Source: Clostridiales bacterium
GTDB taxonomy: Bacteria > Bacillota > Dehalobacteriia > UBA7702
Assembly: GCA_040766505.1 (NCBI GenBank)
Contig: JAXGQJ010000007.1
Coordinates: 21,232 to 85,231 of the forward strand
Reading direction: 5' to 3'
Length of the DNA: 64,000 nt
Below, piece by piece: positions 3,190-61,496 of this stretch. The notes under the pieces were generated by a model. That model had not been told where the DNA came from. It saw nothing but the letters and a program-made list of their open reading frames with translations, and ran no database searches. Position 1 is the stretch's first letter. The number at the start of each line of letters is the position of its first letter. The translations under genes and the position numbers were made by a program.

Positions 3190-4379
3190 AGAAGAGAGTA
3201 GAGGTACTGCAGGAATATTCGATTCCATTGATAGCCGGCGTCCTCTTGGCGTTGGTATGGGCGAATATTTCTCCCGAGTCTTACCATCACTTTGTGCATT
3301 TTGAAGTTTTCGGCAGCGTAACGGTTCACTTCTTGGTTCAAGATGTTTTCATGGTCTTTTTCTTCGGCACCGCCGCGGTGGAAATTGTGGAAGCGTTGCA
3401 GCCCGGCGGCGCATTGAACCCGATACGGCGCGCCATCAATCCATTGCTCGCCACCCTCGGCGGCGTTCTCGGCCCTGTTTTGGTGTTTATCCTGTTGAAT
3501 TCGCTGATCGGCGGCCCCCAATATGCCAGGGGTTGGGGGATAGCGACGGCGACGGACATTGCCATCGCCTGGCTTGTCGGCAAGCTGATTTTCGGCCAAA
3601 ACCACCCGGCCATCAAGTTTTTGCTGCTTTTGGCCATTGTCGACGATGGCATCGGCCTCGCGATCATCGCCATTTTCTATCCCGACCCCACTTCGCCGGT
3701 GATGCCGCTGTGGTTGCTGCTCTGCGTGGCGGGGATGGGCATCGCTTTCCTGCTCAACCGTTTAAAGGTCAAGAGCTATTGGCCCTATCTGCTGACCGGC
3801 GGCATTCTCAGCTGGGTCGGCTTATACAATGCCCATATTCACGCGGCGCTGGCCCTCGTTTTTATCGCGCCCTTTTTCCCCGCGCCGCCGCGGTCGGTCA
3901 ATGCCGATCTGTTCGTTTCCAGTGAGGACGATAAAAAGTTCGCCCTCACCCGCTTCATGCACGATTGGAAGCCGGTGGTCGATTTTGGCCTTTTCTTCTT
4001 TGGCCTTGCCAATGCCGGCGTTGCCTTTTCCAATATGGGCGTGCCGACCATCATGGTCATGACGGCGCTGATCGTCGGCAAAGCCATCGGCATCACCGGC
4101 TTTGGCCTTTTGGCCACCAAGGTGGGTTTCCCATTGCCCAATGGCATGGACCGGCGGGATTTGGTGGTCACCTCCTGTGTCGCCGGGATCGGCCTCACCG
4201 TCGCGCTGTTTATGTGCGGCGCGGCCTTCATCGATCCCCATATCCAGGGCGCCGCCAAAATGGGGGCCCTCTTCAGCGTCTTTTCCGCGCCGATCGCCAT
4301 CGTCGTCGCCAAGATATTGCGGGTGCGCAAATATAGGCCGGAAGAGCGCGGGTTTGTGGACAAAGGGGACGTCGTTTAA
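3186..4379 (+). CDS. nhaA: Na+/H+ antiporter NhaA
   Basis: 397-aa polytopic ORF with NhaA hallmarks (GWGIATATDIAIA..., LLLLAIVDDGIGLAIIAIFY). It overlaps the larB stop by 4 nt. Confidence 0.9.
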   Translation: MKKRVEVLQEYSIPLIAGVLLALVWANISPESYHHFVHFEVFGSVTVHFLVQDVFMVFFFGTAAVEIVEALQPGGALNPIRRAINPLLATLGGVLGPVLVFILLNSLIGGPQYARGWGIATATDIAIAWLVGKLIFGQNHPAIKFLLLLAIVDDGIGLAIIAIFYPDPTSPVMPLWLLLCVAGMGIAFLLNRLKVKSYWPYLLTGGILSWVGLYNAHIHAALALVFIAPFFPAPPRSVNADLFVSSEDDKKFALTRFMHDWKPVVDFGLFFFGLANAGVAFSNMGVPTIMVMTALIVGKAIGITGFGLLATKVGFPLPNGMDRRDLVVTSCVAGIGLTVALFMCGAAFIDPHIQGAAKMGALFSVFSAPIAIVVAKILRVRKYRPEERGFVDKGDVV

Positions 4380-4459
4380 CCGGGCTGCCGGCAGGCGCCC
4401 GCTGTCGCCGCCGTCGCCAAAACGGCGAACCTTCAAACCGTCCCTACCGAAAGGTTTAT

Positions 4460-4495
4460 GGGCAGGCAGGTGTATACCGGCCTGCCCCACTTTTT
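4460..4495 (+). terminator. rho-independent terminator after nhaA
   Basis: GGGCAGGC-loop-GCCTGCCC stem followed by a TTTTT run. Confidence 0.6.
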
Positions 4496-4543
4496 AAAAA
4501 GGGTTGAATTTGCTCCGCGATAGAGCTGGAAGGTGGTTTTTGT

Positions 4544-4568
4544 CCGCCGTCGGTACGGCGGTTTTTTT
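4544..4568 (+). terminator. second GC hairpin plus T-run
   Basis: CCGCCG-tcggta-CGGCGG followed by TTTTTTT. Confidence 0.55.
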
Positions 4569-4627
4569 GTGAGCAAAAGGCGAAGCCCCTTTTCATTTCC
4601 GCCTTTTTCGTTTATGCTATAGGCGAG

Positions 4628-5353
4628 GTGATTTTGGTGTTGACGGAAGAAATAAAGGAACGGGCGCTTTTCTATGGGGCGGATCTCTGCGGCATCGCCG
4701 ATCTTACCCCGCTGGCGGCGGAGCTTGGGGCTTTCTACGGCCCGGCTTTCGCGGGGTTTCCCCGGGCGGTCAGCGTCGCCGTTTTTCTGCCCAGCCTCGT
4801 GGTGGACGAGCTGTTGACGGCGCCAAGCCATACCTATCTCGCCTATTATGACATCGCCAATGGCCTGTTAAATGAAATTTGCCTGAAACTTAATAAAGAC
4901 CTGGAGAAAAAGGGGTATGCCGCCTATCCGATTCCCGCTTCCCAGCGCAGCGGCGCCCACCGGGAACGGGGGATCTTCAGCCACCGCCTCGCCGCCGCCG
5001 CCGCCGGCCTCGGCTGGCTCGGCAAAAACGGTTCCCTGGTTCATGAGCGGGTCGGCCCCCGGCTGCGCCTGGGCACCGTTTTGACGGACGCGCCGCTGAC
5101 AGCCGACGCCCCCGTCGCCTCCCGCTGCGGCGATTGTGTACAATGCCGGGACGCTTGCCCTCCCGGGGCCTTATTGGGCCGGGAATACCTGCCGGGAGAG
5201 CCGCTGTCCGCCCGGTTTGTTTTTCAAAAATGTGAGGATTATTTGGCGGAAACGCGGCAGGTTTTCGGCAAGCGGATCTGCGGCCGCTGCATTGCCGTTT
5301 GTCCTTGGGGAAGGAGAGGGGAAAAGATTGGAAACGACGGAAAGGCAAAATAA
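4628..5353 (+). CDS. QueG/reductive-dehalogenase-related iron-sulfur protein (two 4Fe-4S motifs)
   Basis: 241-aa ORF. It contains GIFSHRLAAAAAGLGWLGKNGSLV...GPRLRLGTVLTD, then CGDCVQCRDACP and CGRCIAVCPWG. Confidence 0.6.
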   Translation: MILVLTEEIKERALFYGADLCGIADLTPLAAELGAFYGPAFAGFPRAVSVAVFLPSLVVDELLTAPSHTYLAYYDIANGLLNEICLKLNKDLEKKGYAAYPIPASQRSGAHRERGIFSHRLAAAAAGLGWLGKNGSLVHERVGPRLRLGTVLTDAPLTADAPVASRCGDCVQCRDACPPGALLGREYLPGEPLSARFVFQKCEDYLAETRQVFGKRICGRCIAVCPWGRRGEKIGNDGKAK

Positions 5354-10761: not shown

Positions 10762-11032
10762 AATGCCAAGAACCGCAAGCCCAAGCGCCCGCGGCGCTAT
10801 AGATTGGGATGCTTGAAAGCGGGGTTCGGCCCCCTTTCAGACGATCCCTGCTGTACAATAAACAGTTTGATTTTATTTCGATGTAATGGTCGCCGATTCT
10901 TTCTAAAAACATTTTATCTAAGATATAAATTCGCCCAGGGCGACTTTGTCTACACTTTGGTATCAAGATCTTCTTGGGGCTTTTTTACATGGCGGCTGCC
11001 AGCCATACAAAGGAGGCCAGCGATGAAGGAAA

Positions 11033-12021
11033 GCCGACGTCTCTTTGCAAAAGCCGTCACCGATGCCGGGGTTTTTGCCGTCCTGTCCATCGTTCTATTG
11101 CTGATCGCCCAGTTTGTGCCGGTGATCAGTATCTTCGTTTCCCTTCGTTTGGGCGGTGCCGCTGATGATCGTCGTCCTGCGCCATCCATTGTGGAGCGGG
11201 ATTTTATGCGGCGCCATCATCGTCGGCGGCGCGATGAGCTGGCCGGTTCGCTTTGTCAGTTTTTTCGCCGGTTTCGCTTTGGTGGGCATCGGCCTGACCT
11301 ACGGTTTGTGCTTCAAGTACCGGGTTTCCCCGGCGCGAACGCTGTTTTGCGACATCGTTATCAGCGGTTTCGCCACCGCCGCCGCGCTGCTCTTCATCGG
11401 TCTTTTGGGGGATTCGCCCTTTGCCGCCATTCTGGGCCAGGTCAAACTGTCTTTGGAGGAATGGCTGAGGCCTGCTTCGATGGGGCGCCTTGGCGACGTT
11501 TTGCCCGGCGGCATGACGGAGGAGCCTATATCGCCGAAATGCTGAAGGTGTTTCAGCTTTGCTGCCCGCCGTCTTTATTTTGGGGGCGATGTCCACCGCC
11601 GCCGCCAATTATTTTGCCGCCATGTTCCGGATTTTGCGGCGCTTCCGTTTTCATCCCCGCGCTGCCGCCGTTTCCGGGAATGGCATATCCCGTGGTGGAT
11701 GGTGTGGGGCGTCATCGTCGCCCTGCTGTCGCTCTTCGCCGGCAATCGCTGGCAAATTCCGTGGCTTTTGGCCTTGGCCCGAAAACCCTGATCTATATTT
11801 ATCTGCCCATAACGGTGCTGGCGGGGGTTTCACTTCTTACCTTTTTATTCCATCAATATCGGCTTTCCCGCCGGGTACAGGTGTTAATTTGGATTTTGGC
11901 GGCGCTGTTCCTGACCTTTTCCTTCCCTTTTGCGGCCTTTTTCGGGCTTTTGGATATGATCGTCGACTATCGGAAAACTTTTGCAGGCATGAAAAAAAGC
12001 AAGGACAATCAAGATAAATAG
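11033..12021 (+). CDS. YybS-like DUF2232 membrane protein (frameshifted)
   Basis: It occupies the position between rpsR and rplI that yybS holds in Firmicutes. Polytopic pieces start at MKESRRLFAKAVTDAGVFAVLSIVLLLIAQFVPVISI... RBS AAAGGAGG. Confidence 0.6.
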
Positions 12022-21973: not shown

Positions 21974-22807
21974 ATGACGGCCGAAGAAATTAAAAAGATC
22001 AATGCCCTCGTACCCATCAAAGGGAAAATCATCAAAATCAACCAGGAAACCTCGGACACCAAGACCTATACCATCACCGCCGAAGACGGCACGAAGCCCT
22101 TTGCCCCCAAGCCCGGTCAGTTGGGGATGCTCTCCATCCCCCAGATCGGCGAGGCGATGTTCTCCATCACCCACCAGGGGGAAAACACCATCGATATGGC
22201 GATCAAAAGCGTCGGCGCGCTGACCAATGCCCTCTTCGAAGTTGAGGAAGGCCAGGAATGCGGCATCCGCGGCCCCTATGGCAACGGCTTCCCGCTGGAC
22301 AAATGCAAAGGCCGGGACATCCTTTTCATCGCCGGCGGCATCGGCCTCGCGCCGGTGCGCAGCCTGATCATGCACTGCATCGAAAACCGGGCCGATTATG
22401 GCAAGCTGACGGTGGTCTACGGCGCCCGCTCCTATGGGGATCTGGTTTTTAAAGACGATATTCTGGAAAACTGGCCCAAAGTGGAAAATATGGACGTTTT
22501 CGTTACCATCGACCGGGGCGAAGAATGCTGGAAGCAGCATGTCGGCTTCGTTCCCGCCTATGTGGAGGAGCTGAATCCGGCGCCGACGCTGACCTTCGTC
22601 TGCGGCCCGCCGATCATGATCAAATTTACCCTCCAGTCGCTGATGAAGATGGGGTATGACGAGGACGAAGTCATCACCACGATGGAAATGCGCATGAAAT
22701 GCGGGATCGGCAAATGCGGCCGCTGCAATATCGGCAGTTGCTTCGTCTGCCTCGACGGCCCGGTCTTTACGATGCGGGAAATGAACGCGCTGCCCCCGGA
22801 ATATTAA
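21974..22807 (+). CDS. AsrB/FlxA-like FAD/NAD(P)-binding oxidoreductase with a C-terminal 2Fe-2S
   Basis: 277 aa. FNR-like fold (LFIAGGIGLAPVRSL) and CGIGKCGRCNIGSCFVCLDGP. Confidence 0.75.
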   Translation: MTAEEIKKINALVPIKGKIIKINQETSDTKTYTITAEDGTKPFAPKPGQLGMLSIPQIGEAMFSITHQGENTIDMAIKSVGALTNALFEVEEGQECGIRGPYGNGFPLDKCKGRDILFIAGGIGLAPVRSLIMHCIENRADYGKLTVVYGARSYGDLVFKDDILENWPKVENMDVFVTIDRGEECWKQHVGFVPAYVEELNPAPTLTFVCGPPIMIKFTLQSLMKMGYDEDEVITTMEMRMKCGIGKCGRCNIGSCFVCLDGPVFTMREMNALPPEY

Positions 22808-22828: not shown

Positions 22829-23574
22829 GAGGGAATGGCCGCATGGCCATTCCCTCAGATATATAAAATTCAAGTCATTCTGTAGACAAACTCCCTGCGC
22901 AGCGACCTTGGACGATCCGCAAAAGGATTTTGGGAAAGATCGGTAACCGTTACATGGAACGTGGCGTCGAAAAATTTATTGTGTAGCAGGGGATCGTCTG
23001 AAAGGGGGCCAGGCCCCGCTTTCAGGTATCTCAATTTATAGCGCCGTAGGCGCGTCAGCTTGTAGACTTTGTCTACAAGCGAGGGAATGGCCGTATGGCC
23101 ATTCCCTCAAACTGAAGAAAAACTCCCTGCGCAGCGACCTTGGACGATCCGCAAAAGGATTTTGGGAAAGATCGGTAACCGTTACATGGAACGTGGCGTC
23201 GAAAAACTTATTGTGTAGCAGGGGATCGTCTGAAAGGGGGCCAGGCCCCGCTTTCAGGTATCTCAATTTATAGCGCCGTAGGCGCGTCAGCTTCTTGACT
23301 TTGTCTACAGTCTGAGGGAATGGCCGCATGGCCATTCCCTCAAACTGTAGACAAACTCCCTGCGCAGCGACCTTGGACGATCCGCAAAAGGATTTTGGGA
23401 AGGATCGGTAACCGTTACATGGAACGTGGCGCCGAAAAACTTATTGTGTAGCAGGGGATAGTCTGAAAGGGGGCCAGGCCCCGCTTTCAGGTATCTCAAT
23501 TTATAGCGCCGTAGGCGCGTCAGCTTGTAGACTTTGTCTACAAGCTGAGGGAATGGCCGCATGGCCATTCCCTT
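22829..23574. repeat. tandem array of 3 near-identical ~232-bp non-coding units with 4 copies of a 28-nt perfect palindrome
   Basis: 170-nt cores at 22891-23060, 23123-23292 and 23356-23525 differ at only a few positions. The palindrome GAGGGAATGGCC-GCAT/GTAT-GGCCATTCCCTC lies at 22829-22856, 23081-23108, 23314-23341 and 23547-23574. A TGTAGAC-TTT-GTCTACA motif sits next to it. Confidence 0.9.
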
Positions 23575-23854
23575 TCGTGTACCATCGGAAGCCCCGGTAC
23601 GGCGCTTCGGGCCTGTTGATGCCATCGCCTATTGTGGTTTGGGCCATGCCGCCGGGGGATTTTGTTGTCTTGACGGGCGAGAGATGGTATGATAAAGGTA
23701 AAGAAATCATATGTGGCCAAGATGGCCGTGTTTCGGGGGATTTGCTTTGCCGTCGGCGGCGGCGAACCGCTTGTGGCTGGCGGCGCCAAAGAAAAAAGCG
23801 AGGCATCCGCAACATTCCACGATGGCTATGCGTATCAGTGATAGGTGGGTGTAT

Positions 23855-24745
23855 ATGAAAGACCAAAAACGGGTGGCGGACGCGCCATATTCCAATGCGA
23901 ACCGCTACAATCGACATAGATCGGGCCGGCGGGCGGCGCGCCGGAAAAGAAGGGCCGCCATCGTCGCCTTGGTTTTGGTGTTCGCCGCGCTGGTCGGGAT
24001 CGGAGCCTGGTACGCCGCGCGAAACACGGCGATGTTCGGCGGCGGTTCGACGGCCCGCTCCGGCGCATATGACAGCCCCTATGCGGCCCCGGCCAGTGCG
24101 CAGCAAATCGATGCCTTGCTTGAAAACCGGGAGGCGTATCCCGCGGAACTTAGGCAGCTGCTGGAACGCAATTCCGAAACCTTCGACTATGTAGCGGATT
24201 ATCTCAATGCCGGTGATTATCTCGGGCAGCCGTATGCATTTGAGGTTCAAAAGGGTGTGATGCCGCATTTGTTGCAGTGGGACAAGAGGTGGGGGTATGC
24301 GCAGTACGGCGATGCCATGATGGGATTAAGCGGCTGCGCGCCGACTTGCCTGGCGATGGTTTCCGCCCAGCTTACGGGCGATGCGTCCCAGGATCCGCTC
24401 ACCATAGCGAAATTGAGCGAGGCGGCGGGCTATTTTGTGTCCGGCGCCGGAACCTCTTGGGAGATGCTCCGCGTGGGATGTGAGGCCATCGGCATCAAGG
24501 CGAAGGCGCTGCCGCTGAATGAAAAAAAGATCAAGGACAGCCTCTACAGCGGACATCCCGTTATCTGCAGCGTTGGCCCCGGCGACTTTACATCGGCCGG
24601 ACATTTTATTGTTTTGTATGATGTGTCAAAAAGCGGCGAATTGATGGTAAAGGATCCGAACAGCATAAAAAACACGCTGGTCACATGGCGTTATGACAGA
24701 ATCGTAAGCCAAATCAAGGCCCTTTGGGCCTATGAGGAAAAGTGA
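23855..24745 (+). CDS. membrane-anchored C39-like (YvpB-type) cysteine peptidase
   Basis: ATG at 23855 after AGGTGG. N-terminal basic stretch plus TM (AAIVALVLVFAALVGIGAWY). Peptidase_C39-like core LLQWDKRWGYAQYGDAMMGLSGCAPTCLAMV...GHFIVLYD. Confidence 0.7.
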   Translation: MKDQKRVADAPYSNANRYNRHRSGRRAARRKRRAAIVALVLVFAALVGIGAWYAARNTAMFGGGSTARSGAYDSPYAAPASAQQIDALLENREAYPAELRQLLERNSETFDYVADYLNAGDYLGQPYAFEVQKGVMPHLLQWDKRWGYAQYGDAMMGLSGCAPTCLAMVSAQLTGDASQDPLTIAKLSEAAGYFVSGAGTSWEMLRVGCEAIGIKAKALPLNEKKIKDSLYSGHPVICSVGPGDFTSAGHFIVLYDVSKSGELMVKDPNSIKNTLVTWRYDRIVSQIKALWAYEEK

Positions 24746-29899: not shown

Positions 29900-29928
29900 C
29901 CCCGGAGCGCCGATAAGGCGCACATAGC

Positions 29929-30135
29929 GTCGTTGTAGCCGAGGGGCCGGATCCTCACATACCCCAAGTATGGTTCGGCCCCGGCCCCCCGACTGCGCCT
30001 AGCTCTGCACACCTTCTCGGCGCTCCGGTTCCAGGTTTCCGATAGACGCCCGGCGGCGTCATTGTCAGCAAAGGCCGAGGCCCCATGTACGTCCAAAAGT
30101 ACGCATCGGGCCCCGGCCTTTGGCTTGCGCCTAGC
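29929..30135. repeat. two copies of the long-hairpin repeat family (locus A)
   Basis: A1 spans 29929-30004 and A2 spans 30035-30135. Each has CGTC(G/A)TTG, a 60-70-nt imperfect hairpin with a GGCCGG...CCGGCC core, and GCGCCTAGC. They lie between the convergent ilvC and tauE-like genes. Confidence 0.8.
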
Positions 30136-31307: not shown

Positions 31308-32779
31308 TTACCGGGCGGCGTATTCTTCCTCCGCCTCGGCGATGATGTCGCTTAGGCCTTGTGCCGCCCCGTCGGGCAAAGCGGGCACCCGGTGGGTGGC
31401 CAAGATATGTTCCGCTTCCGCATAGGCCCGTTCCGCCAAATCCTTCGACCCTTCCATCACCCACGCTTCCCGCATCGAGCGGTCGAAGAGCTTCGTGGCA
31501 CTCTGTTCATGGCGGAACCGCTGGAAGGTGTGGGGATGGCTGATCAGTTCACCGCCGGGGCCGATCTCCTTGATCAGTTCAACGGCGATATTTTCATCGC
31601 TGATCTTGATGCCGTCCATCACCCGGCGGATCATCGTATAGATTTCATTGTCGATTACGAATTGGGCCAGGTCGAAAGTGATGCCAAGGTCCAACATGCC
31701 GGCGCCGTAGATCAAATTGGCGCCGCCCTGGGCCGCCAATAATGCCGTCAATGTTTTCTCGTGGGCCGCCTGTCCGTCGGGAACTTTGCTGTCCGCCTAG
31801 CCCCCCGCCACAAAGCTCGGCAGTTTGTAGAATTGGGCCAGCCTTGCCACCGAGGCGCTGATCATGCCGAGTTCCGGCGCGCCGACGGGGGCCGTCGTAT
31901 AGCGCATGTCCATAATCGTCGTCGAGCTGGCATAAATACAGGGGGCGCCTTTTTGCGTCAGTTGGCTTAAAACGATCACGCTCAGCACTTCCGCATTGTG
32001 GGTGGCGAGGGTTCCCGCCAAAGTCACCGGCGAGGTGGCCCCGGCCATCGCCATCGAGATGATATTGATCGGCACATTTTCCTTGGCCGCCAGCATCACA
32101 ACGTCGGTGCATTCGGGGATCAACTTTAACAGGCTGGTGGGGCAGACATTGAAGCTGATCAGCGGCCGCTGCCGCAGCGCTTCTTGGCCGCCGGCCACCA
32201 GGGCCGCCATACGGATCAGTTTTTTGGCATTGTCGATGCCGTCGGCGCCGATAAAGAAGTGTTTTGTCGTATTGGGGAAAATGGCCTCGGCATTGTGGAG
32301 GGCCTGGGCGGGGCCGGGGCAATCTTGGGATACCACCGCCCGATAGGTGATGTCCATATTGGGCAAATAATCGCTCATCCGGCTGCATTGGGCCAAATCC
32401 GCCTTGGTGCTGGGACGGTACTCTTTCGTTTTCATATCCCGCATCATGACGCCTTCGCCGAAATTGACGAAGCCAATCCTGTTTTTTTCCAGAACATAGT
32501 CCTTTTCCGGCAGCCGCCCCGACAGCCGCAAGGTGGGGGGTGCTGTACGAATGGCCTCTTCTACCATGTAGGGCGGCATTTTTACGATTTTGCTTTTCTC
32601 GTCGACGCTGGCGCCGCCGGCGGCGAAAACCTCTCTCGCTTCCGGGCTGTCGACCCGCACGCCGATATTGTGCAAAATATCCAGCGTCGCAACGTGGATG
32701 GTCTCCAGTTCATCCTGGGAATAGCCGACGATGCCAAAGCTGCCGAGCCCCGGAAAACTGCCTGTGTGTTCCTGGTCAT
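31308..32779 (-). CDS. mttB: trimethylamine:corrinoid methyltransferase family protein MttB with one in-frame UAG (putative pyrrolysine); 1-nt frameshift near the 5' end
   Basis: ORFs 31797-33050 and 31308-31751 share one frame and are joined by a single TAG. Translation: ...YSQDELETIHVATLDILHNIGVRV...[47 protein letters not shown]... The ATG at 32779 follows AAGGAGG but lies in the +1 frame relative to the body. Confidence 0.8.
31797..31799 (-). other. in-frame amber codon (candidate pyrrolysine site)
   Basis: Plus-strand CTA equals minus-strand TAG. It is flanked by conserved MttB sequence in the same frame on both sides. Confidence 0.7.
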
Positions 32780-50465: not shown

Positions 50466-52919
50466 GTGGAACAGTATATTTTACCCCTTGAAGATATTAA
50501 AATCCGCCACCAGGTGGAATTCGGCAGCAAGGCGGCGAACCTCGGCGTCATCGCCCGGGAGATGACGACCCCCCGGGGTTTCGCCATTTCCTCTAAAGTG
50601 TATATCGAGGCGCTGAACGCCAACTGCCTACAGCAGGAAATTACCGCGATGGCCCGAGAGGTGGAGGACAAGCCGATCCAGCAGATCGAACCGGTGGCGG
50701 CGGCGATCGCCGCCAAGATCACCGGGCTGGAGCTTTCCCCTAAGCTGGAAGCGATGCTGCGCGACGCTTATGAGAAAACCTGGCCCAAGGACAAGCCGGC
50801 GGTGGCGGTGCGTTCCTCCGCCACCGCCGAAGATTTGCCATCCGCCTCCTTTGCCGGCCAATTGGAGAGCTTCCTCCACATCGAAGGGGCCGGGGCCTAT
50901 CTGGAGGCGGTGAAGGAGTGCTGGGCTTCGCTCTGGACGCCCCGGGCCATCCACTACCGGCGCCAAAAGGGCATCGGCCAGAAGAACATCGCCATGGCCG
51001 TCATCGTCCAGGAGATGGTGGCGGCGTCGGCGGCGGGGGTGATGTTCACCGCCAATCCCGTCACCAATTCCCGGCAGGAGATCTATATCGAGGCCGTTCG
51101 CGGTCTCGGGGATCGCCTGGTTTTGGGGGAAACCAATGCCGATGTCTATCTGGTTCGGAAGGAGCGGCTTTCACCTCTTCCTGCGGCTGGAAGAGGAACG
51201 GTCTCTGCTGACGGAATACCAGCTGAAGGTATTGGCCGCCGCCGGAAAAAGCTGGAATTCCTTTACGATCAAGAGCAGGACGTGGAGTGGGCGCTGTGTC
51301 AGGGGGAAATCTATATCCTGCAAACCCGCCCCATCACCACCCTGGATGAGGAGGATATGCCGCTGCCGGATCCCGCCGAGATGACCGAAATCCAGCGGGA
51401 AGTCTGGATCAATGTCAACGAGCGTTTTCCCGACCCGGTGCTGCCCATCGACGGCATCATCGCCAAGATATACTATCAAAGCCTGTTTTCCGCGTATAAA
51501 AGCCTGGATTTCCAGGTGCCCTATGTGGATTGGAAACGGGTGGAAGAGGGGTTTTTCCCGGAATATTTCCAGCCCCCGGCCATTACACGGCGGCCCTGGC
51601 GCAGGGTGAAGCTGCGGAATGTCGACCGGCTCGACATCGAAAAGGAATGGCGGGACAATGAAAATGCCTTCAACCGCTATCTCGCTTTGCTGCAAAACCC
51701 CGATTTGCCCGGCTATCCGCTGGAAACGGTGATGGAATACCTGGAAGATGCCTTGAAGGACTTTCAGCGGGCGCTGTATCTGCGCTATCTTCTTTATATC
51801 CGCTATAATATGAAATACAATGCCCTCGTCGCCGCTGTGGAGAAGAAATTTGGCCAAGAGGGCAGAACGGCGCTGGACAGCGCCATCGCTGGCGAACCCC
51901 AGATCACGATGGAACTGAACGACGCATTGCGCCGCCTCGCCATTGAAGCGGGAGAGGATCCGCACCTCGCCAAAATCCTCCTCGGCGGCGACCTGCTCCG
52001 AATCGAAGAGGTGTTTCGGGAAAGCCTGGGGGATCACCCGTTCCTCGGCCGCTACCACGCTTTTATGGCGAAATATGGCGACCGGGAAATCAGCCAGGGC
52101 CTGGGGGGCCTCGCCGCCGCCCTTTGGCGGGACGAGCCGGCGGTGGTTTGGGGCATGATTCGCGGCCTGCTCAAAGCCGATACGGCCGGAACGGCGCCGG
52201 AAAAGGAACCGGCCCGGGAAGCGATCCGGCAACGCCTCAAGCAGGATCGCCGTTTGGCGGCGAAAATTCGGGACGCCCGGCGCTACAATGCCTTCCGAGA
52301 AAACAGCCATTTCTATCTCACCCGGGCGATGACGGTCTTTTCCTCCCTCTTCCTGCAAATTGGCGACCGGCTGGAAAAGAAAGGCCTGTTGGACGACGGC
52401 AAAGACATCGTCTATTTCACCTATTTTGAAATCAAAGACATCATTTTCAATCTCCATAGCATGCAGAAGATCAGCCGTTTGGAGCTGGCGGAAACCATTG
52501 CCGACCGGAAGGCCCGGCAGAAGCGGCGGGAACGGCGCTGGTTGAGCCGGAAATCCGGGGATCGGCTCAGCTATGGCGATGTGATCCGGGGTGTGGCGGC
52601 TTCCGGCGGCCTGGTGCAAGGCCCCTGCCGGATCATCAAGAGCCCCCAGGAATTCCACCGGCTGGAGCCCGGCGATATCATGGTGGCGGAATATACAAAT
52701 CCTTCCTGGACGCCGGTGTTCTCCTTCATCGGCGGCCTGGTGGTGGAATATGGCAGCGCCGTTTCCCACGCGGCGATCATCGCCAGGGAATACGGCATCC
52801 CCGCCGTTTTCGGCATCGACGGCATCGTCGGGACTTTGGTGGACGGGGAAGAGGTGATCATAGATGGGAGCCGCGGCATCATCCACCGCACCCCCAGGCT
52901 TCCGATAGATACCCGATAA
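50466..52919 (+). CDS. PEP-utilising enzyme with rifampicin-phosphotransferase-like three-domain layout; compensating frameshifts near 51150-51250
   Basis: GTG after GGGAGGAG. N-terminal PPDK_N/ATP-grasp (FGSKAANLG...VAVRSSATAEDLPSASFAGQ...WASLWTPRAIHYR), a long helical middle, and a C-terminal swivel domain (...NPSWTPVFSFIGGLVVEYGSAVSHAAIIAREYGIPAV). Confidence 0.8.
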   Translation: MEQYILPLEDIKIRHQVEFGSKAANLGVIAREMTTPRGFAISSKVYIEALNANCLQQEITAMAREVEDKPIQQIEPVAAAIAAKITGLELSPKLEAMLRDAYEKTWPKDKPAVAVRSSATAEDLPSASFAGQLESFLHIEGAGAYLEAVKECWASLWTPRAIHYRRQKGIGQKNIAMAVIVQEMVAASAAGVMFTANPVTNSRQEIYIEAVRGLGDRLVLGETNADVYLVRKERLSPLPAAGRGTVSADGIPAEGIGRRRKKLEFLYDQEQDVEWALCQGEIYILQTRPITTLDEEDMPLPDPAEMTEIQREVWINVNERFPDPVLPIDGIIAKIYYQSLFSAYKSLDFQVPYVDWKRVEEGFFPEYFQPPAITRRPWRRVKLRNVDRLDIEKEWRDNENAFNRYLALLQNPDLPGYPLETVMEYLEDALKDFQRALYLRYLLYIRYNMKYNALVAAVEKKFGQEGRTALDSAIAGEPQITMELNDALRRLAIEAGEDPHLAKILLGGDLLRIEEVFRESLGDHPFLGRYHAFMAKYGDREISQGLGGLAAALWRDEPAVVWGMIRGLLKADTAGTAPEKEPAREAIRQRLKQDRRLAAKIRDARRYNAFRENSHFYLTRAMTVFSSLFLQIGDRLEKKGLLDDGKDIVYFTYFEIKDIIFNLHSMQKISRLELAETIADRKARQKRRERRWLSRKSGDRLSYGDVIRGVAASGGLVQGPCRIIKSPQEFHRLEPGDIMVAEYTNPSWTPVFSFIGGLVVEYGSAVSHAAIIAREYGIPAVFGIDGIVGTLVDGEEVIIDGSRGIIHRTPRLPIDTR

Positions 52920-53237
52920 CGTCGTTGTCACCACAGGGCCGGATCCTCACATACCTGTAAGTATTGTTCGGCCCCGGCCCTGTGGTTCCGCCTAGCTCTC
53001 GGGCATCTCTCGAAAGCCTGCCCGGGCTTCGCCTCGCGGCTGATCGCGTCGTTGCGGCCAAGGGGCCGGATCCTCACATACCTGTAAGTATTGTTCGGCC
53101 CCGGCCCCTTGGCCGCGCCTAGCGCTAAGCCGCGATGCTGTGCCTGCCAGGCTTCCGATAGATACCCGATAACGTCGTTGTCACCAAAAGGCCAGACCCT
53201 CATGTACGTCTGAGCACACGTCGGGACTGGCGCTAGG
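52895..53237. repeat. three copies of the long-hairpin repeat family (locus B)
   Basis: B1 spans 52895-52996, B2 spans 53047-53123, and B3 spans 53148-53237 (truncated). A 39-nt exact direct repeat, CAGGCTTCCGATAGATACCCGATAACGTCGTTGTCACCA, occurs at 52895-52933 and 53148-53186. Confidence 0.85.
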
Positions 53238-53423
53238 GGTGTTTTTCCGGCTTGGGGTATATGGGATAATAAAAAGGTCGGGCTTTGTGTGCGTCTGCGG
53301 AGACATGAAGCCGGCCTTTTGATCGTAATGGCGCGATTGCGCGTTTTGAAACAGAGATTGCGGGTGGAGGGCGGATATCTTTATCTGGGGCAGCGTTTTG
53401 GGATGGTGGCGGGGTTTTATCGT

Positions 53424-54245: not shown

Positions 54246-54668
54246 ATGAAAAAGAAAACCGTTTTTGTCGCGCTTTTACTGGCTGTTGCGGTATTGTGTT
54301 TTGCCGGTTGTAACCGGAGCAAGCCTTCTGATGAGGACAAATCCTATTTGGATGAGAATGGCGAGTACTATTTCGGGGAATGGGCATTTGAAATGAACGG
54401 GCCGGAAGGCACCGCGGCCCTGTATGATTTAAGCGATGCGGAATTTGAAAAATGGCTGGATAAAAACGGCTACATCCAAGCGGGGGTGACGGTGGAATCC
54501 GCGCGGAGAGACTATACCGGCAGCGTAATGTTCATAGCGAAGATGAGCGACGATGAGATCAAGGCAACCTTTTTTATGAGCGATGAAGAAATCCGCATAT
54601 TTCGGGACTATGTCGCGGATGTATTTGGCGACCCCGACGACTATAATCTTGAGGATTATGAGCATTAA
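54246..54668 (+). CDS. small lipoprotein
   Basis: MKKKTVFVALLLAVAVLCFAGC lipobox. 140 aa. More AT-rich than its surroundings. Confidence 0.75.
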   Translation: MKKKTVFVALLLAVAVLCFAGCNRSKPSDEDKSYLDENGEYYFGEWAFEMNGPEGTAALYDLSDAEFEKWLDKNGYIQAGVTVESARRDYTGSVMFIAKMSDDEIKATFFMSDEEIRIFRDYVADVFGDPDDYNLEDYEH

Positions 54669-55584
54669 GGCCCTTGCGCTTCAAGCATAAAAATCCGTAT
54701 GGCCGGGGGAAGGAAGGGCGGCGCAGTTTTTTGAAAGCGCCGGGCCTTCCTTTTCCCTTGTGTTTTGGGCGGGTTTTGGCGTATAATGAAGGGGAAAAAA
54801 GTGTTCGGGAGGAAGCTATGAAACTTTGGGGCGGCCGCTTTGCCAAAAACAGCGATCGGAGGATGGACGATTTTCATTCCTCCATCCGTTTCGACCGGAG
54901 ATTGTACCGGGAGGACATCGAGGGTTCCCTGGCCCACGTCGCCAAGCTGGGGAAAACCGGCGTGATTTGGATGAGAATGGCGAGTACTATTTCGGGGAAT
55001 GGGCATTTGAAATGAACGGGCCGGAAGGCACCGCGGCCCTGTATGATTTAAGCCGATGCGGAATTTGAAAAATGGCTGGATAAAACGGCTACATCCAAGC
55101 GGGGTGACGGTGGAATCCGCGCGGAGAGACTATACCGGCAGCGTAATGTTCATAGCGAAGATGAGCGACGATGAGATCAAGGCAACCTTTTTTATGAGCG
55201 ATGAAGAAATCCGCATATTTCAAAATTATGTCGCGGATGGATGGCGACCCCGACGACTATAATCTTGAGGATTATGAGCATTAAGGCCCTCGCGCTTCAA
55301 GCATAAAAATCCGTATGGCCGGGGAAGGAAGGGCGGCGCAGTTTTTTGAAAGCGCCGGGCCTTCCTTTTTCCCTTGTGTTTTGGGCGGGTTTTGGCGTAT
55401 AATGAAGGGGAAAAAAAGGCGTTCGGGAGGAAGCTATGAAACTTTGGGGCGGCCGCTTTGCTAAAAACAGCGATCGGAGGATGGACGATTTTCATTCCTC
55501 CTATCCGTTTCGACCGGAGATTGTACCGGGAGGACATCGAGGGTTCCCTGGCCCACGTCGCCATGCTGGGAAACCGGCGTGATT
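54346..55584. repeat. ~0.62-kb direct tandem duplication (two copies)
   Basis: Copy 1 (54346-54964) and copy 2 (54965-55584) each hold the lipoprotein 3' part, the intergenic region and the first ~49 codons of argH. They differ by a few substitutions and homopolymer indels. The junction shares GATT/ATTTGG microhomology. Confidence 0.85.
54818..54964 (+). pseudogene. argH: truncated 5' fragment of argH created by the duplication
   Basis: [50 protein letters not shown], then an abrupt switch into the repeated lipoprotein sequence. Confidence 0.75.
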
Positions 55585-56791
55585 CCCGAGGAGGATGCTG
55601 TATGATCCGCGCCGGGCTACGGGAGATTCTGGCGGAAATCGCTGGGCGGGTGGAATTCGACGCCGCCGCCGAGGACATTCATATGAACATCGAAACCCTG
55701 CTGATCGAAAAATCGGCGCAGCGGGGAAAAAGCTCCATACCGCCCGCAGCCGCAATGACCAGGTGGCCCTCGACATCCGGCTCTATCTGCGGCGGGAGAT
55801 CGGGGAAATCCAGGCGCTGGCGCGGCCCTCGCCGAAACGCTGCTCGATCTCGCGGCGGAACACGCGGAAACGATCAGCGCCCGGCCATACCCACCTGCAT
55901 GCCCAGCCGGTTTCCTTCGGCCATCATCTGTTGGCCTATTTTGGAAATGCTGCTGCGGGATATGGGCCGCTTCCGGGACGCCGCCCGGCGCATGAATGTG
56001 CTGCCGCTGGGGGCCGGGGCCCTGGCCGGCACCGTTTTCCCCCTCGACCGGGAGATGGTCAAAGAAGATCTGGGCTTCGGCGCCGTCAGCGCCAATAGCC
56101 TTGACGCTGGCGGATCGCGACTTCGCGCTGTCCTCGCCGCCGCCATTTTGATGATGCATCTGTCCCGTTTTTCCGAGGAGATCATCGTCTGGTCCTCCGG
56201 CGAATTCGGCTTTCTCGGCCTGGACGACGGCTACAGCACCGCCTCGATCATGCCGCAGAAAAAAATCCCGATGTGGCGGAATTGGTTCGGGCAAACCGGC
56301 CGGGTGTACGGCGATTTGATGGCGCTACTGACGGTGTGATGAAGGGCCTGCCCCTCGCTTACAATAAGGACATGCAGGAGGATAAGGAGGGCCTTTTTGA
56401 CGCCGTAGACACCGTGAAGCAATGCCCGCCATCTTCCGGCCGATGGTGGCGACGAAGGTGAACAAAGAGCGGATGCGGGCTGAGCAAGGAACGGGCTTTA
56501 CTGTCGCCACCGACGCCGCCGATTATCTCGCCGCCAAGGTGCCCTTCCGGGAGTACCATATCGGGTCGTCGGCGCCATCGTCCTCCACTGTGAAGGAGAG
56601 GGGAAGCGCCTGGCCGATCTGACCCTGGCGGATTGGCGGCGCTTCTCCCGCTTTCGACGAGGACATTTTCACCTTCATCCAAATCGAAACAGCCTGGCCC
56701 GCCGCAAAAGTTCAGGGCGGCCCCGCCTTCGAACGGGCCAGGGAAGCGATCGCGGCGGGACGGGAACGCCCTCAAAGCGCTGTTGGATTGA
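55436..56791 (+). CDS. argH: argininosuccinate lyase (many frameshifts in this assembly)
   Basis: [19 protein letters not shown]..., ...[21 protein letters not shown]..., ...PGYTHLQ-like..., ...SSIMPQKKNPD-like (IMPQKKIPM)..., ...[18 protein letters not shown]...; pieces lie in all three frames. Confidence 0.85.
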
Positions 56792-56815
56792 ACCCTTTCC
56801 CGCCGCCGTGAAAAA

Positions 56816-56859
56816 CCCCGGCGGAGCATGGCCGCCGCCGCCGCTCCGCCGGGGTTTTT
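56816..56859 (+). terminator. rho-independent terminator after argH
   Basis: CCCCGGCGGAGC - loop - GCTCCGCCGGGG followed by TTTTT. Confidence 0.7.
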
Positions 56860-57176
56860 GCGTTTCCAGCGCCGCGTGTTACGGCTGTTTTTGGGCTGTT
56901 ATGCCAAGTGAAAACAGCTTTCCTTCAAAAAGAAAATGTCCGCTTGATAGGCCGCCGCGTTCTTTGGTTCCACGCCAAATCTTGCCCATATCCCGCCGCC
57001 GGCAGCAAGGTAAGGTCGGCGCGGAACGCATAAAGATATTGGCTGGCCGTTTCATTTGCCAGCCGCTGAGAGGGAGGGCCGATTTTTTCCCGCACCGCTT
57101 CCTCCGTTGCCAGGAAGCCGATTTCTCCCGCCCATTCCCAGTCGCAGGCCAGCGCCTGAAAGAAATCGCCGGCGCT

Positions 57177-57640: not shown

Positions 57641-57766
57641 TTGCGATTGTACATATCAGTTTCCAACTCCTTTTTTGTATTCCTCACATCATATGATTTT
57701 CCGCTGCGTGGGGTTACTGAAATGGCGAAAAGGACAGAGCGTTCGGCTTGCAGGGCAAAGTCAAGA

Positions 57767-57936
57767 AGCCGATCAGCCTACGGCGCTACAGATTGAGATG
57801 CCTGAAAGCGTACTCGGCCCCCTTTTAGACGATCCCCTGCTATACAATAATTTTTTCGACGCCGCGTTCCATGTAACGGTTGCCGTATCCTTTTCCTGAA
57901 TCCTTTTGCGGATCGTCCAAGGTCGCTGCGCAGAGG
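57767..57936. repeat. solo, diverged, inverted copy of the 170-nt core of the 22829-23574 array
   Basis: The plus strand here aligns to the reverse complement of the array core. The central part (GACGATCCCCTGCTA...TTCGACGCC.CGTTCCATGTAACGGTT...ATCCTTTTGCGGATCGTCCAAGGTCGCTGCGCAG) is nearly identical. The GC hairpin part has decayed. Confidence 0.85.
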
Positions 57937-57940
57937 AAGC

Positions 57941-58330
57941 TTAGGTTTGAGAGCGTTTTCTCCGTCCTTTCCATGTAAACATCTGTCGGCCGTTTCTTGG
58001 CAGCGGGGTTGGGGAGGGGCTGCAAAAAATTTGGGGCTGGACAAAAGAGGCCGGGTTCTCTATAAGGCGATACTGTAGGTAACTGTGTACCGCGTCGCAT
58101 GGAACCGTTTCGTAGGATGGAAGGATGGTGGGAAATGGCGATTTGGCTTTCTGTTTGCGCGCCGCCGCTCTTTTTCGAGCAGCCGGCGGATAAAGCGGGG
58201 GGAAAGCGAAACGCCCGACGCCGCCCGGCGAAACCCGGAATCCGGCCGTTTGGTCAACGCATCGCGGCGGTGCAGCGATTTTCCGCCATCTCGCGGGCCG
58301 GGCCGGAAATGAAAATTTAGGGCTTGGTTT
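57941..58330 (-). pseudogene. tentative AraC-family HTH regulator remnant
   Basis: Weak evidence. The minus-strand pieces ...AASGVSLSPRFIRRLLEKE... and ...SYLQYRLIENPA... resemble the two AraC HTH helices (G.S..Y..R.F.KE / YL...RI..A) but sit in different frames. Confidence 0.25.
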
Positions 58331-58441: not shown

Positions 58442-59739
58442 ATGATATGGCGCTCCCGAATTTGAATGTATGACCTGAACAAAATGAACGTCCCGTACTC
58501 GAGCGGCTAGCCAGCTCCTCCAACGGGTATACGACAAAATTCCCGCAACAGGTGGTAAAAAAGTTTTACGGGCGGGGGTAAAACCGTCGGACTGTAAAAG
58601 CCTGAAAGACCTGGCGAAATTTCCCTTCACCACCAAGGCCGATCTTAGGGACAATTATCCTTTCGGCCTCTTTGCCGTTCCGAAAAAGGACATTGTCCGG
58701 CTTCACGCTTCTTCCGGCACGAGGAAGCCCATCGTCGTCGGCTATACCGCCTATGATATGGAAGCCTGGACCGATTGCGTCGCCCGGATGGCTTCCGCCG
58801 CCGGGGTAACGAAATACGATACGGCGCAAATCTGTTTCAGCTATGGCCTTTTTACCGGGGGTTTCGGCCTCCACTATGGCCTGAGCGGCTGGGAGCCACG
58901 GTGATTCCCATTTCCGGCGGCAATACGGAAAAGCAATTGATGATCATGCAGGATTTCGGCACCACCACATTGATTTCCACCCCTCCTATTCCCTCTATAT
59001 CGGCGAAGTGGCAGAAAAACTCGGCCCTCGATATGGAGAAGATGAAGCTCAGGTCGGCCTTTTCGGCGGCGAGCCCTGGAGCGAAGGGATGCGGAAGGAG
59101 ATTGAAAAGCGCCTTGCCATCCTGGCCACCGACAATTACGGTTTCAGTGAAGTGATGGGGCCCGGCGTTTCCGGGGAATGCGTCTATGCCGTCGGCCATC
59201 ACATCGCCGAGGATCAGGTGCTGGTGGAAACGATCGACCCCCATACCGGGGAGGTATTGCCCCCGGGCGAGAAGGGGGAACTCGTTTTCACCTCTTTAAA
59301 CCGGGACGCTTGCCCCGTCGTCCGCTACCGCAGCAAGGACATTTCCCGGATCATCCAGGAACCTTGCGCCTGCGGCCGCACCAATGCCAGAATGGAACGG
59401 GTGACCGGCCGTACCGACGATATGATGATCATCCGCGGCGTCAATGTTTTCCCCTCTCAGATTGAGGAGGTGTTGCTGAGCGTCGACGGCATCGGCCCCG
59501 ATTATCAGATCAATGTCTACCGCAAAAATTATCTCGACAGCCTCGAAGTGATGGTGGAATTGCGGGACGGTTCGCTGCTGGAAAAATTCAGCGAGCTGGA
59601 AAATCTGGAGCGCTCCATCGTCGCCAAGCTTCACAATGTGCTGTCCATTCATGTGAAAGTCCGCCTGGTGGAACCCCATACCTTCGAACGGTCGCCAGGG
59701 AAGGCCAAGCGGGTCAACGATTTAAGAGAGAAAGAATAA
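58442..59739 (+). CDS. paaK: phenylacetate-CoA ligase (frameshifted)
   Basis: MIW...FECMT..., ...[40 protein letters not shown]..., ...[17 protein letters not shown]..., and the intact C-terminal ORF 59008-59739 (...[38 protein letters not shown]...). Confidence 0.85.
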
Positions 59740-59769
59740 AGCGCGTCAAGCGAAATGGGAAGGGATCTT

Positions 59770-61496
59770 ATGAACGTTTTAATGACGGGGAATGAAGCCG
59801 TCGCCAGGGGCGCTTGGGAAGCCGGCGTCCGGGTGGTCGCCGCCTATCCCGGCACCCCCAGCACGGAAATTACGGAGAATGCCGCCAAATATAAAGAACT
59901 CTATGCCGAATGGGCCCCCAATGAAAAGGTGGCGCTGGAGGTGGCCATCGGCGCTTCCGTCGCTGGGGCGCGGGCCTTGGCCTGCATGAAGCATGTCGGC
60001 GTCAATGTGGCGGCGGATCCATTGCTGACGGTGGCTTTCACCGGCGTCCGGGGCGGCCTGGTTCTCGTCACCGCCGACGATCCGGGGATGCACAGCTCCC
60101 AAAATGAGCAGGACAACCGGCAATATGGCCGCCTGGCGAAAATTCCGGTATTGGAACCCGCCGACAGCGCCGAGGCCCTGGCCTTCACAAAGCTGGCCTT
60201 CGAGCTGAGCGAAACCTTCGATACCCCGGTGCTGCTTAGGCTGACCACCCGGGTGTCCCATTCCCAGTCCCTGGTGGCTTTGGGGGAACGGGAGGATGTG
60301 GAGTTAAAAGCCTATGAGAAGGATCCGGCGAAATTCGTGATGATCCCGGCCCATGCCCGGCCCCGCCATGCCATCGCCGAACGGCGGCTGGAAAAACTGC
60401 GGGCTTACGGCGAAAGCGCCGCAATCAACCGGGCGGAACTGGCCGATGAAGAAAAGGCGGAAATCGGCGTCATCGCTTCCGGCATCGTCTATCAATATGT
60501 GAAGGAGGCGCTGCCCCAGGCTTCCGTATTCAAATTGGGGATGACCCATCCGCTGCCGAAGGAAGCGCCGTTGGCTTTCGCCTAAAAGGTGAAACGGGTC
60601 TTCGTCATCGAGGAATCGATCCTTTCATTGAAGAGTATTGCCGTATTCTGGTATCCCCGTGATCGGCAAAGAACTGTTCCCGATGGAAGGGAGATTTTCC
60701 CGGAGATCGCCGCAAAGGTGCTGGGGGAAAAGGAAGCCGCTTTGCTTCGCGAGGGGCCGGTGCCGGGCCGGCCGCCGGTGCTCATGCCGGGTTGCTCTAC
60801 CGGGCGGTCTTTTATGTGCTGCGGCGCTTGAAGCTCCGCGTCATGGGCGACATTGGCTGCTATACCCTGGCCGCCTGCCGCCGCTTTCCCGCCATCGACA
60901 CCACGATCTGTGGCTGGGGGCCAGCATCGGCATGGCCCTGGGAGCGGAAAAGGCCTGGGAGATTTCGCCGCCAAAACCGTGGCGGTGCTGGGGATTCCAC
61001 TGTTCATTCCGGCATCACGCCGCTGATCGATACGGTCTACAATGGCGGCCTCCACCACCACGCTGATTTTGACAATCGCATCACCGCAATGACCGGCCAC
61101 CAGGAAAATCCCACCACCGGCAAGCGGGTCAATGGCGAGGCGACGAAAGCCCTCTCCCTGGAATTGCTGGTTAAAGGCTGCGGCGTGGAGCGGATCCGCA
61201 TTGTCGATCCCTTCGATGTGAACGCTTTGGAGGAGATGCTGAAGGAGGAACTGGCGGCAAAAGAGCCCTCGGTGATCATCTGCCGCCGCCCCTGCGCTTT
61301 GCTGGACAAAAGCAAACAGGAGCCCTATTATATCGAGGACGAACGCTGCCTGCGCTGCAAGCGCTGTTTGAAGATCGGTTGCCCCGCCATCGTCAAAACC
61401 GATGCGGCCCCCTATATCAATGCGGCCCAATGCGTCGGCTGCGGCCTCTGCGCCGCCATTTGCCCCCACGGGGTCATCGTGGAGGGGAATGCATGA
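59770..61496 (+). CDS. iorA: indolepyruvate:ferredoxin oxidoreductase alpha subunit (frameshifted)
   Basis: MNVLMTGNEAVARGAWEAGVRVVAAYPGTPSTEI...HSSQNEQDNR...; C-terminal CLRCKRCLKIGCP and CVGCGLCAAICP. Confidence 0.85.

Follow-up and report, generated by a model that had tools for sequence, protein, structure and literature searches.

Among described bacterial repeats, the closest counterparts of the locus analysed here are MITEs, short for miniature inverted-repeat transposable elements, including Correia/NEMIS of Neisseria, RUP of Streptococcus pneumoniae, bcr1 of Bacillus cereus, MITEAba12 and the QMITEs of Coxiella. A second set for comparison is provided by insertion sequences (ISs) that target palindromic repeats: IS1397 and ISKpn1 insert into the loops of repetitive extragenic palindromic (REP) sequences, and IS110/IS1111-type elements insert into REP or attC sites. 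Such elements are autonomous, each encoding its transposase; they are directed at genome-wide REP families and split the hairpin, with duplications of 0-4 bp. With these systems in mind, we examined a tandem array at positions 22880-23573 of a 64,000-nt stretch of DNA (hereafter the window) from a Clostridiales bacterium (assembly GCA_040766505.1, contig JAXGQJ010000007.1, positions 21,232 to 85,231). We read the array, with a probability of about 0.62, as three copies of a ~207-bp non-coding, non-autonomous MITE-like transposable element, here called M, amplified locally at the terminator of an flx operon. The first-pass annotation had offered three options, namely a structured non-coding RNA (ncRNA), an amplified non-autonomous mobile element and a protein-binding satellite. 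Its interpretation is partly supported: the mobile element is favoured because M recurs in the opposite orientation at two other sites, has terminal inverted repeats (TIRs), is flanked at one site by an 8-bp repeat whose removal restores a hairpin, and is missing, at two of its three loci, from the corresponding sites of relatives.

The distribution of M carries much of this argument. A search of the window with one array unit (nhmmer and blastn) returned two further copies, both on the minus strand and both at unlinked intergenic sites. One of them, c4 (57744..57949), matches the array units at 85% (nhmmer E 2.8e-36; also found by blastn) and has decayed TIRs; the other, c5 (approximately 10763..10958, with uncertain borders), matches at 74% (nhmmer E 9.6e-20), and its left TIR is perfect and its right TIR lost. 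A profile built from the five copies recovered exactly the same five and nothing more. The repeat, whose dispersal the first-pass annotation did not recognise, is therefore also present at 57.7 kb and 10.8 kb. Each of its three unlinked intergenic loci lies at or in a terminator-type hairpin 3' of a gene, and the five copies in the window compare with none in 123 kb of the closest available relatives. Several hallmarks of a MITE are found in M: it is short and non-coding, it has TIRs, it is dispersed (five copies at three loci in 64 kb), and it has empty sites.

The tips of M read 5'-CAAAC...AAGCYG-3', and its 13-nt inverted repeats (TGTAGACAAASTC) lie 5-6 nt inside each tip. Against 0.78 expected, the motif has seven occurrences in the window, all of them at element ends. 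Twelve of 13 positions match between the two repeats in units 1 and 3 of the array (u1 and u3); the repeats are mutated in unit 2 (u2). For a parent IS, ends of the M type would start with CAAACTGTAGACAAA and finish with TTTGTCTACAAGCYG. M contains a conserved 60-nt hairpin, and an alignment shows that an 80-nt block common to all copies (TTATTGTRYAGCAGGGGATCGTCTGAAAGGGGGCC...CGCTTTCARGYATCYCAATYTRTAGCGCCGYRGGC) holds the long hairpin together with a GCGCC hairpin. The internal hairpin CTGAAAGGGGGCC-A-GGCCCCGCTTTCAG was reported earlier and is indeed present in three copies without a mismatch; the small hairpin GCGCC-GTA-GGCGC is likewise in the sequence. The complementary pair GACGATCC/GGATCGTC described with them also exists in the sequence, but it does not enter the consensus fold, its first half is lost in c5 and its second is mutated in u3. 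The copy at c4 shares the 5' half of the array units almost exactly; in c5 the 5' half is strongly diverged and the 3' half conserved.

A signature of insertion is preserved at c4, which has an exact direct repeat of 8 bp on its two sides, at 57736..57743 and 57950..57957 (AGAGCGTT on the plus strand, AACGCTCT on the minus strand). When the 40-nt flanks were shuffled, an 8-mer was shared in 156 of 20,000 trials (0.8%, p about 0.008). Removal of M and one repeat copy leaves GGAAAGGACGGAG-AAAACG-CTCTGTCCTTTTCG, which folds into a hairpin of 13 bp (-20 kcal/mol, z -4.7) with UUUUCG after it. The restored hairpin, its U-tract and the 8-bp repeat together match the trace of an 8-bp staggered insertion into a terminator hairpin. 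The sole relative recovered for this region (L087, GCA_040766525.1) is not syntenic there and yielded no empty site. At the third locus, c5 lies between the rpsR stop codon and TCTTGGGGCTTTTTT, antisense to rpsR. This flank is identical to the 3' arm and T-tract of the rpsR terminator in two relatives (L084 and L086), in which the terminator hairpin is uninterrupted and M is absent; their spacers measure 283 nt (with other content) and 92 nt, respectively. Together with flxA, described below, orthologous empty sites were found in relatives at two of the three loci.

At the array itself, the hairpin in question is a palindrome, GAGGGAATGGCC-GCAT-GGCCATTCCCTC, that occurs four times, as previously reported: P1 at 22829..22856, P2 at 23081..23108 (with a GTAT loop), P3 at 23314..23341 and P4 at 23547..23574, all given on the plus strand. 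P4 ends in CCCTT instead of CCCTC, a single mismatch. These copies were found by a repeat search in a sequence where shuffling predicts none (0 expected). The location directly after an hdr/flx cluster was confirmed with Pfam, by which the upstream genes form an hdrCBA/flxDCBA-type cluster (Fer4, CCG, Pyr_redox/Fer4, FlpD, Fer4_22, NAD_binding_1). Its last gene (21974..22807, plus strand) encodes a FlxA-like NAD(P)H-flavin oxidoreductase with NAD_binding_1 and DHODB_Fe-S_bind domains, and orthologues in relatives are 90-92% identical. The array begins with P1, 22 nt past the flxA stop codon at 22807, and P1 occupies the position of the native flxA terminator.

Relatives' loci were fetched by FlxA identity, the nearest named relatives being metagenome-assembled genomes of Peptococcaceae. 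In an alignment of species with 91-92% identical FlxA, AAAAGGGGAATGGTC-TTGCATG-ACCATTCCC-TTTTT stands about 20 nt past the flxA stop without M. Five loci from such species have the hairpin after flxA and lack M, and in four loci (L075, L079, L080 and L082) the hairpin GGGGAATGGTC-TTGCATG-ACCATTCCC is followed by TTTTT at the same distance as P1. A sixth relative locus (L081, FlxA 90% identical) has an unrelated hairpin or terminator after flxA. The core of M is absent from the orthologous flxA site in the relatives examined. The hairpin motif GGGAATGG-N-CCATTCCC is found in the window at this locus only, and in the relatives' loci only after flxA. Because relatives carry the same hairpin and T-tract, free of M, at the same place, comparative sequence evidence points to the 28-nt palindrome as the flx operon's own intrinsic-terminator stem, separate from M. 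The first-pass annotation did not recognise this conserved terminator. We also discarded the idea of a genome-wide REP sequence: the palindrome is restricted to this locus, and its single GTDB match (L001) is an unrelated terminator in another organism.

The hairpin has a folding energy of -24 kcal/mol. The earlier remark that none of the hairpins carries a U-tract applies to P1-P3; P4 is followed by TTTCGTGT, a weak tract that a simple terminator scan did not call, and its orthologue in relatives by TTTTT. P4 (-24.1 kcal/mol, z -5.6) is accordingly the copy most like a functional intrinsic terminator. P1 retains the upstream context and P4 the downstream T-rich context of the original site, with (M + P) x 3 in between. 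With a U-tract at P4 and none at P1-P3, transcription of flx probably continues through the three units and ends at P4, which would give the flx/hdr operon an unusually long and highly structured 3' untranslated region (UTR).

The same site varies among relatives. L075, L079 (6850-6970), L080 and L082 have two copies of the flxA terminator hairpin, one with the loop TTGCATG and one with AAAAAA, at a distance of about 56 nt, and in L083 (2960-3000) it occurs once, as a hybrid of the two versions. The 56-nt insert between the two hairpins is unrelated to M (score 15, shuffle mean 15) and is nowhere else repeated. A hairpin present twice around an insert in some relatives and once, as a hybrid, in another indicates that duplication or deletion of the hairpin around an insert has recurred at this locus.

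The organisation of the array into three tandem units was borne out by Tandem Repeats Finder (TRF), which reports 22880-23573 with a period of 233, 3.0 copies, 96% matches and 0 indels as the sole array in the window (longest period searched, 500), and by a separate repeat search with three head-to-tail copies spaced 232/233. A 170-nt core is repeated three times, as had been stated, but the mobile unit is longer, at ~207 bp. It comprises u1 at 22876..23081 (TIR motifs at 22881-22893 and 23065-23077), u2 at 23108..23314 and u3 at 23341..23547 (TIR motifs at 23346-23358 and 23530-23542), all on the plus strand. In u2 the left TIR is mutated (TGAAGAAAAACTC). P3 and the TIRs on either side of it form an extended palindrome at about 23297-23358 with 29-nt arms that are 93% complementary, in agreement with the pairing arms first noted there. 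In unit 1 alone, a 20-nt AT-rich stretch (22856..22875) separates P1 from the element tip; in the unit alignment, the left tip carries a 22-nt AT-rich replacement of the 'AA' found in units 2 and 3. The junctions are identical in all three units, CCATTCCCT/CA...TG/AGGGAATGG, that is CCCT/CA...TG/AGGG, so the array is a 26-nt palindrome alternating with M.

Differences among the units are few and concentrated in the TIRs, and every unit has private changes. The interiors of u1 and u2 differ at one position, u3 has three private substitutions, and u2 and u3 are separated by nine substitutions and no indel. At the tips, u1 equals u3, with u2 set apart. The u2 right end (CTTCTTGAC...ACAGTCT) is shared with c4 and is apparently the ancestral state, and u1 and u3 carry a perfected palindrome, TCAGCTTGTAGAC-TTT-GTCTACAAGCTGA. 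Such a mosaic of tips and interiors suggests that the units were inserted separately, or that conversion or template switching took place inside the array, and speaks against one simple adjacent duplication.

The units do not appear to encode proteins. It had been claimed that no frame is open across a unit, which is not strictly true: minus-strand open reading frames (ORFs) of 99 and 106 aa within 23036-23625 start in the palindrome loop (ATGGCCATGCGGCC...), read through a whole unit and cross its borders. They are nonetheless not credible genes, as Pfam returned nothing for them and the period cannot be divided by 3. We rejected a coding reading more generally, as none of the ORFs of 43-106 aa that overlap the units matches Pfam and indels shift the frame between copies. 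A 10-codon ORF, MERGVEKFIV, is present in c4 and lost from c5.

Set beside bacterial MITEs, M is alike in being ~200 bp long and non-coding, with (sub)terminal inverted repeats and strong folding, and in occurring as several dispersed intergenic copies in both orientations. As in those elements, a direct repeat flanks a well-preserved copy, repeats and TIRs are decayed in older copies, and presence or absence differs between related genomes. M departs from them in that its TIR motif lies 5-6 nt inside the tips, no cognate IS is found in the window, all three loci are terminator hairpins, and one locus has three head-to-tail copies with a complete target hairpin between each. Prokaryotic MITEs have moreover been described as typically AT-rich and AT-targeting (PMC10969869), whereas M is G+C-rich.

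The preference for insertion in or beside extragenic hairpins 3' of genes is shared with the palindrome-targeting ISs. M, however, is non-autonomous, its targets are individual gene terminators, and the duplicated stretch measures 8 bp at c4 and takes in the complete 26-28-nt hairpin at the array. Clusters of REP sequences arranged as bacterial interspersed mosaic elements (REP/BIME) and the pneumococcal BOX elements are similar in forming clusters of hairpin repeats downstream of genes, in the tandem repetition of modules and in a likely influence on mRNA 3' ends. They differ in that the palindrome here belongs to a single locus and is not a genome-wide REP, and in that the module is a 207-bp element with TIRs and not a 35-45-nt unit. 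The window also contains a second, unrelated family of structured intergenic repeats that resembles REP/BIME clusters, with about three copies at 52894-53240 and two at 29924-30135. Its unit is an ~80-nt hairpin (CGTCGTTGTCACCACAGGGCCGG...GGCCCCGGCCCTGTGGT..GCCTAGC) without a Rfam match at gathering thresholds.

We propose that M would have been moved by a DDE transposase acting in trans from another place in the genome, which would make an 8-bp target duplication. One insertion at the flx terminator may then have become bracketed by two hairpin copies. The simplest origin of the array would be a single hairpin-M-hairpin structure whose direct repeats (the 26-28-bp hairpin and the 207-bp M) allowed unequal recombination or replication slippage, with (hairpin + M) x 3 + hairpin as the outcome; repeated insertion into the duplicated hairpin would be an alternative route. 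The single oddity is that each unit has a complete terminator hairpin duplicated around it. For the first such duplication, both strands might have been cut at the base of an extruded cruciform, so that the palindrome itself became the target duplication, or quasi-palindrome template switching may have occurred during repair.

The first of these options can be extended to a rather unlikely but more specific proposal, in which M or its transposase recognises extruded hairpins and, at a perfect palindrome, cuts both strands at the cruciform base, and the duplication is the entire 26-nt palindrome (the 8-bp stagger plus the stem-loop). It would account for the identical CCCT/M/AGGG junctions in all three units, for the mosaic in which u1 and u3 are alike at the tips and u1 and u2 inside, which simple adjacent duplication does not predict, and for the independent hairpin-insert-hairpin structure at the same site in relatives. 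Were it true, each insertion would remake two intact targets, and the terminator would act as a self-renewing landing pad growing into an array. The duplication of a whole terminator hairpin around every unit would matter if it reflected insertion into cruciform DNA, and we offer this as speculation.

For the transposase presumed to move M, our best guess is an ISL3-like enzyme, which we regard as a weak lead. In L087, a complete ISL3-family IS (3960-5330) lies upstream of the paaK-iorA genes, and an IS5-type transposase gene lies near it (1186-2172). The ISL3 element carries a subterminal inverted motif, GTAGACTAAAG, that resembles the TIR of M. Its sequence TTGTGACTTTAGTCTACAAG can be matched to TTGTAGACTTTGTCTACAAG at M's right end with z 6.4 (reached by none of 500 shuffles); 19 positions are identical over 21 columns, two of them gaps, and the similarity extends over ~20 nt only. 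Elements of the ISL3 type make 8-bp target duplications (PMC5559704), the length of the direct repeat at c4. On the other side, no ISL3 transposase is encoded in the window.

Several observations weigh against reading the array as amplified copies of a MITE-like element. No transposase homologue and no autonomous IS with ends matching M was found in the 64-kb window, and M lacks the outer inverted repeats (GGCTC...) of the ISL3 family. A clean target duplication is seen at one of three loci only: the candidates at c5 match at just 5-6 of 8 positions in an intergenic region that has diverged from relatives, and each array unit has the complete 26-28-nt palindrome on either side, so that, with the palindrome duplicated in full, the adjoining 8-mers are inverted and not direct. 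Such flanks are not accounted for by an ordinary staggered cut of 8 bp. The TIRs are decayed in c4, and the right TIR is missing in c5. All copy counts of M come from a 64-kb window on one contig of this genome. Finally, the 3' half of M, with the long and GCGCC hairpins, is far better conserved than the rest, and several changes in it turn G-U into G-C or A-U pairs; this conservation would also fit selection on RNA or DNA structure.

The last of these points leads to an alternative that we consider unlikely, in which M represents structured ncRNA genes or 3'-UTR elements kept for their function (mRNA 3'-end stabilisers or small RNAs, sRNAs) and the array is a tandem gene amplification between terminator hairpins. 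Units fold much better than shuffled sequences on both strands (z -7.9 and -8.6), with much of this coming from the palindromes. The 80-nt block with the two hairpins is the best-conserved part of all copies. Its fold forms in c5 as well as in the array units (z about -3), and in c4 the hairpin is broken (z 0.26). In an alignment of the five copies, 92% of cells pair, and helices 5 and 6 show six one-sided changes that preserve pairing, most of which turn G-U into G-C or A-U. Double changes affect four pairs, where 1.6 are expected (a level reached by 25 of 500 shuffles). The covariation score, however, is not distinctive (50 of 500 shuffles), the alifold covariation term is unfavourable (+1.6), and the comparison rests on only about three independent sequences; the covariation data are neither for nor against a selected structure in M. 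MITE transcripts are known sources of sRNAs (PMC10969869), which would suit the alternative. Against it, Rfam searches of the whole window at gathering thresholds and of all three loci at permissive ones (E<=1-10) returned only spurious miRNA-type hairpin matches (MIR158, 33 bits, gathering score 67), with nothing at c4 or c5, which also upholds the earlier statement that the repeat matches no known RNA class. A scan found no promoter-like or terminator-like signal inside a unit, and the copies lie in either orientation to their neighbouring genes (c5 being antisense to rpsR). The TIRs, the 8-bp flanking repeat and the empty sites are features of DNA insertion and not of an RNA gene.

We regard it as quite unlikely that the array, or its copy number, is an artefact in which the assembler expanded one hairpin-flanked unit or laid strain haplotypes side by side. 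The contig does look error-prone: conserved genes are broken into short ORFs by apparent frameshifts, and a 620-bp tandem duplication repeats the start of argH. The array units, by contrast, are set apart by substitutions clustered in the TIRs (the nine between u2 and u3 without an indel), by private changes in each, by the 22-nt left-tip variant unique to u1 and by the private loop change of P2, none of which resembles homopolymer errors. Because the units differ by substitutions and not by homopolymer indels, they are distinct sequences, and the copies at two other loci show that M itself is real.

The argH duplication (54346-55584, 96.7% identity) spans the 3' end of a gene, an intergenic stretch and the opening ~150 nt of argH. 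Between the copies there are 9 substitutions and 12 homopolymer-type indel columns. It has the look of an artefact of assembly or haplotypes, unless the duplication is very recent. The split genes include argH (55458-56900), a paaK-like gene (58775-59739), iorA (59755-60585) and a DUF2232 gene (11022-12021), and iorA is cut short in the gene calls of the source record too (P0246, 271 aa). Such broken conserved genes suggest an error-prone assembly, which makes the copy number of the array less sure while the units themselves remain distinct.

A very unlikely reading treats the hairpin as a recombination site and the units as cassettes, in an integron-like or other site-specific array whose recombinase inserts M at the palindrome. 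The layout of site, cassette, site and cassette, with identical junctions at all three units, would suit it, as would the two hairpins around an unrelated 56-nt insert in relatives, by which a hairpin was duplicated around an insert more than once here. Yet no recombinase or integrase gene adjoins the array, although no integrase scan of the whole window was made; the palindrome occurs nowhere else in the window; and c4 sits in a different hairpin with an ordinary 8-bp duplication. An integron cassette array with attC sites was rejected, as the arms of the palindrome lack the R''/L''-L'/R' cores (R''/R', RYYYAAC / GTTRRRY) and the array lies between hdr/flx genes and a C39-like peptidase gene.

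Other classes were dismissed on similar grounds. The 'spacers' of a supposed CRISPR array would be 205-224 nt long and copies of one another, so the earlier finding of no match to a CRISPR repeat stands. REP sequences, or the REP doublets known as REPINs, do not suit a palindrome that is single-locus in the window and present only after flxA in relatives. A remnant of an IS200/IS605-derived palindrome-associated transposable element (PATE) or omega-RNA is contradicted by the TIRs of M and the 8-bp flanking repeat at c4, and no omega-RNA-type match was found in Rfam.

Homologues of M were sought more widely with an exact 28-mer from the internal hairpin and three patterns from the conserved block (two of them degenerate), which had 0 matches in 185,579 GTDB species-representative genomes, JGI metagenomes and IMG/VR; a blastn comparison of the array with plasmids and phages also gave no match. 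M is apparently a previously undescribed, lineage-restricted small mobile repeat, ordinary bacterial selfish DNA in an unusual arrangement. For annotators, this means that the array should be labelled neither a new class of RNA nor a locus of CRISPR-like or integron-like type.

Downstream of the array, the next gene is a Peptidase_C39_2-like ORF identified with Pfam, with a likely start at 23866. A promoter scan placed a promoter-like site upstream of it, at 23665..23693 on the plus strand, which puts the array between a terminator and the promoter that comes next. Elsewhere in the window, a PYLIS_3 pyrrolysine insertion element lies within mttB at 31700-31799 on the minus strand (81.8 bits, gathering score 38), so the organism encodes a pyrrolysine-containing trimethylamine methyltransferase. 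M adds a small mobile repeat, with all three observed insertions at transcription terminators, to what is known of an uncultured, pyrrolysine-encoding Peptococcaceae-like anaerobe.

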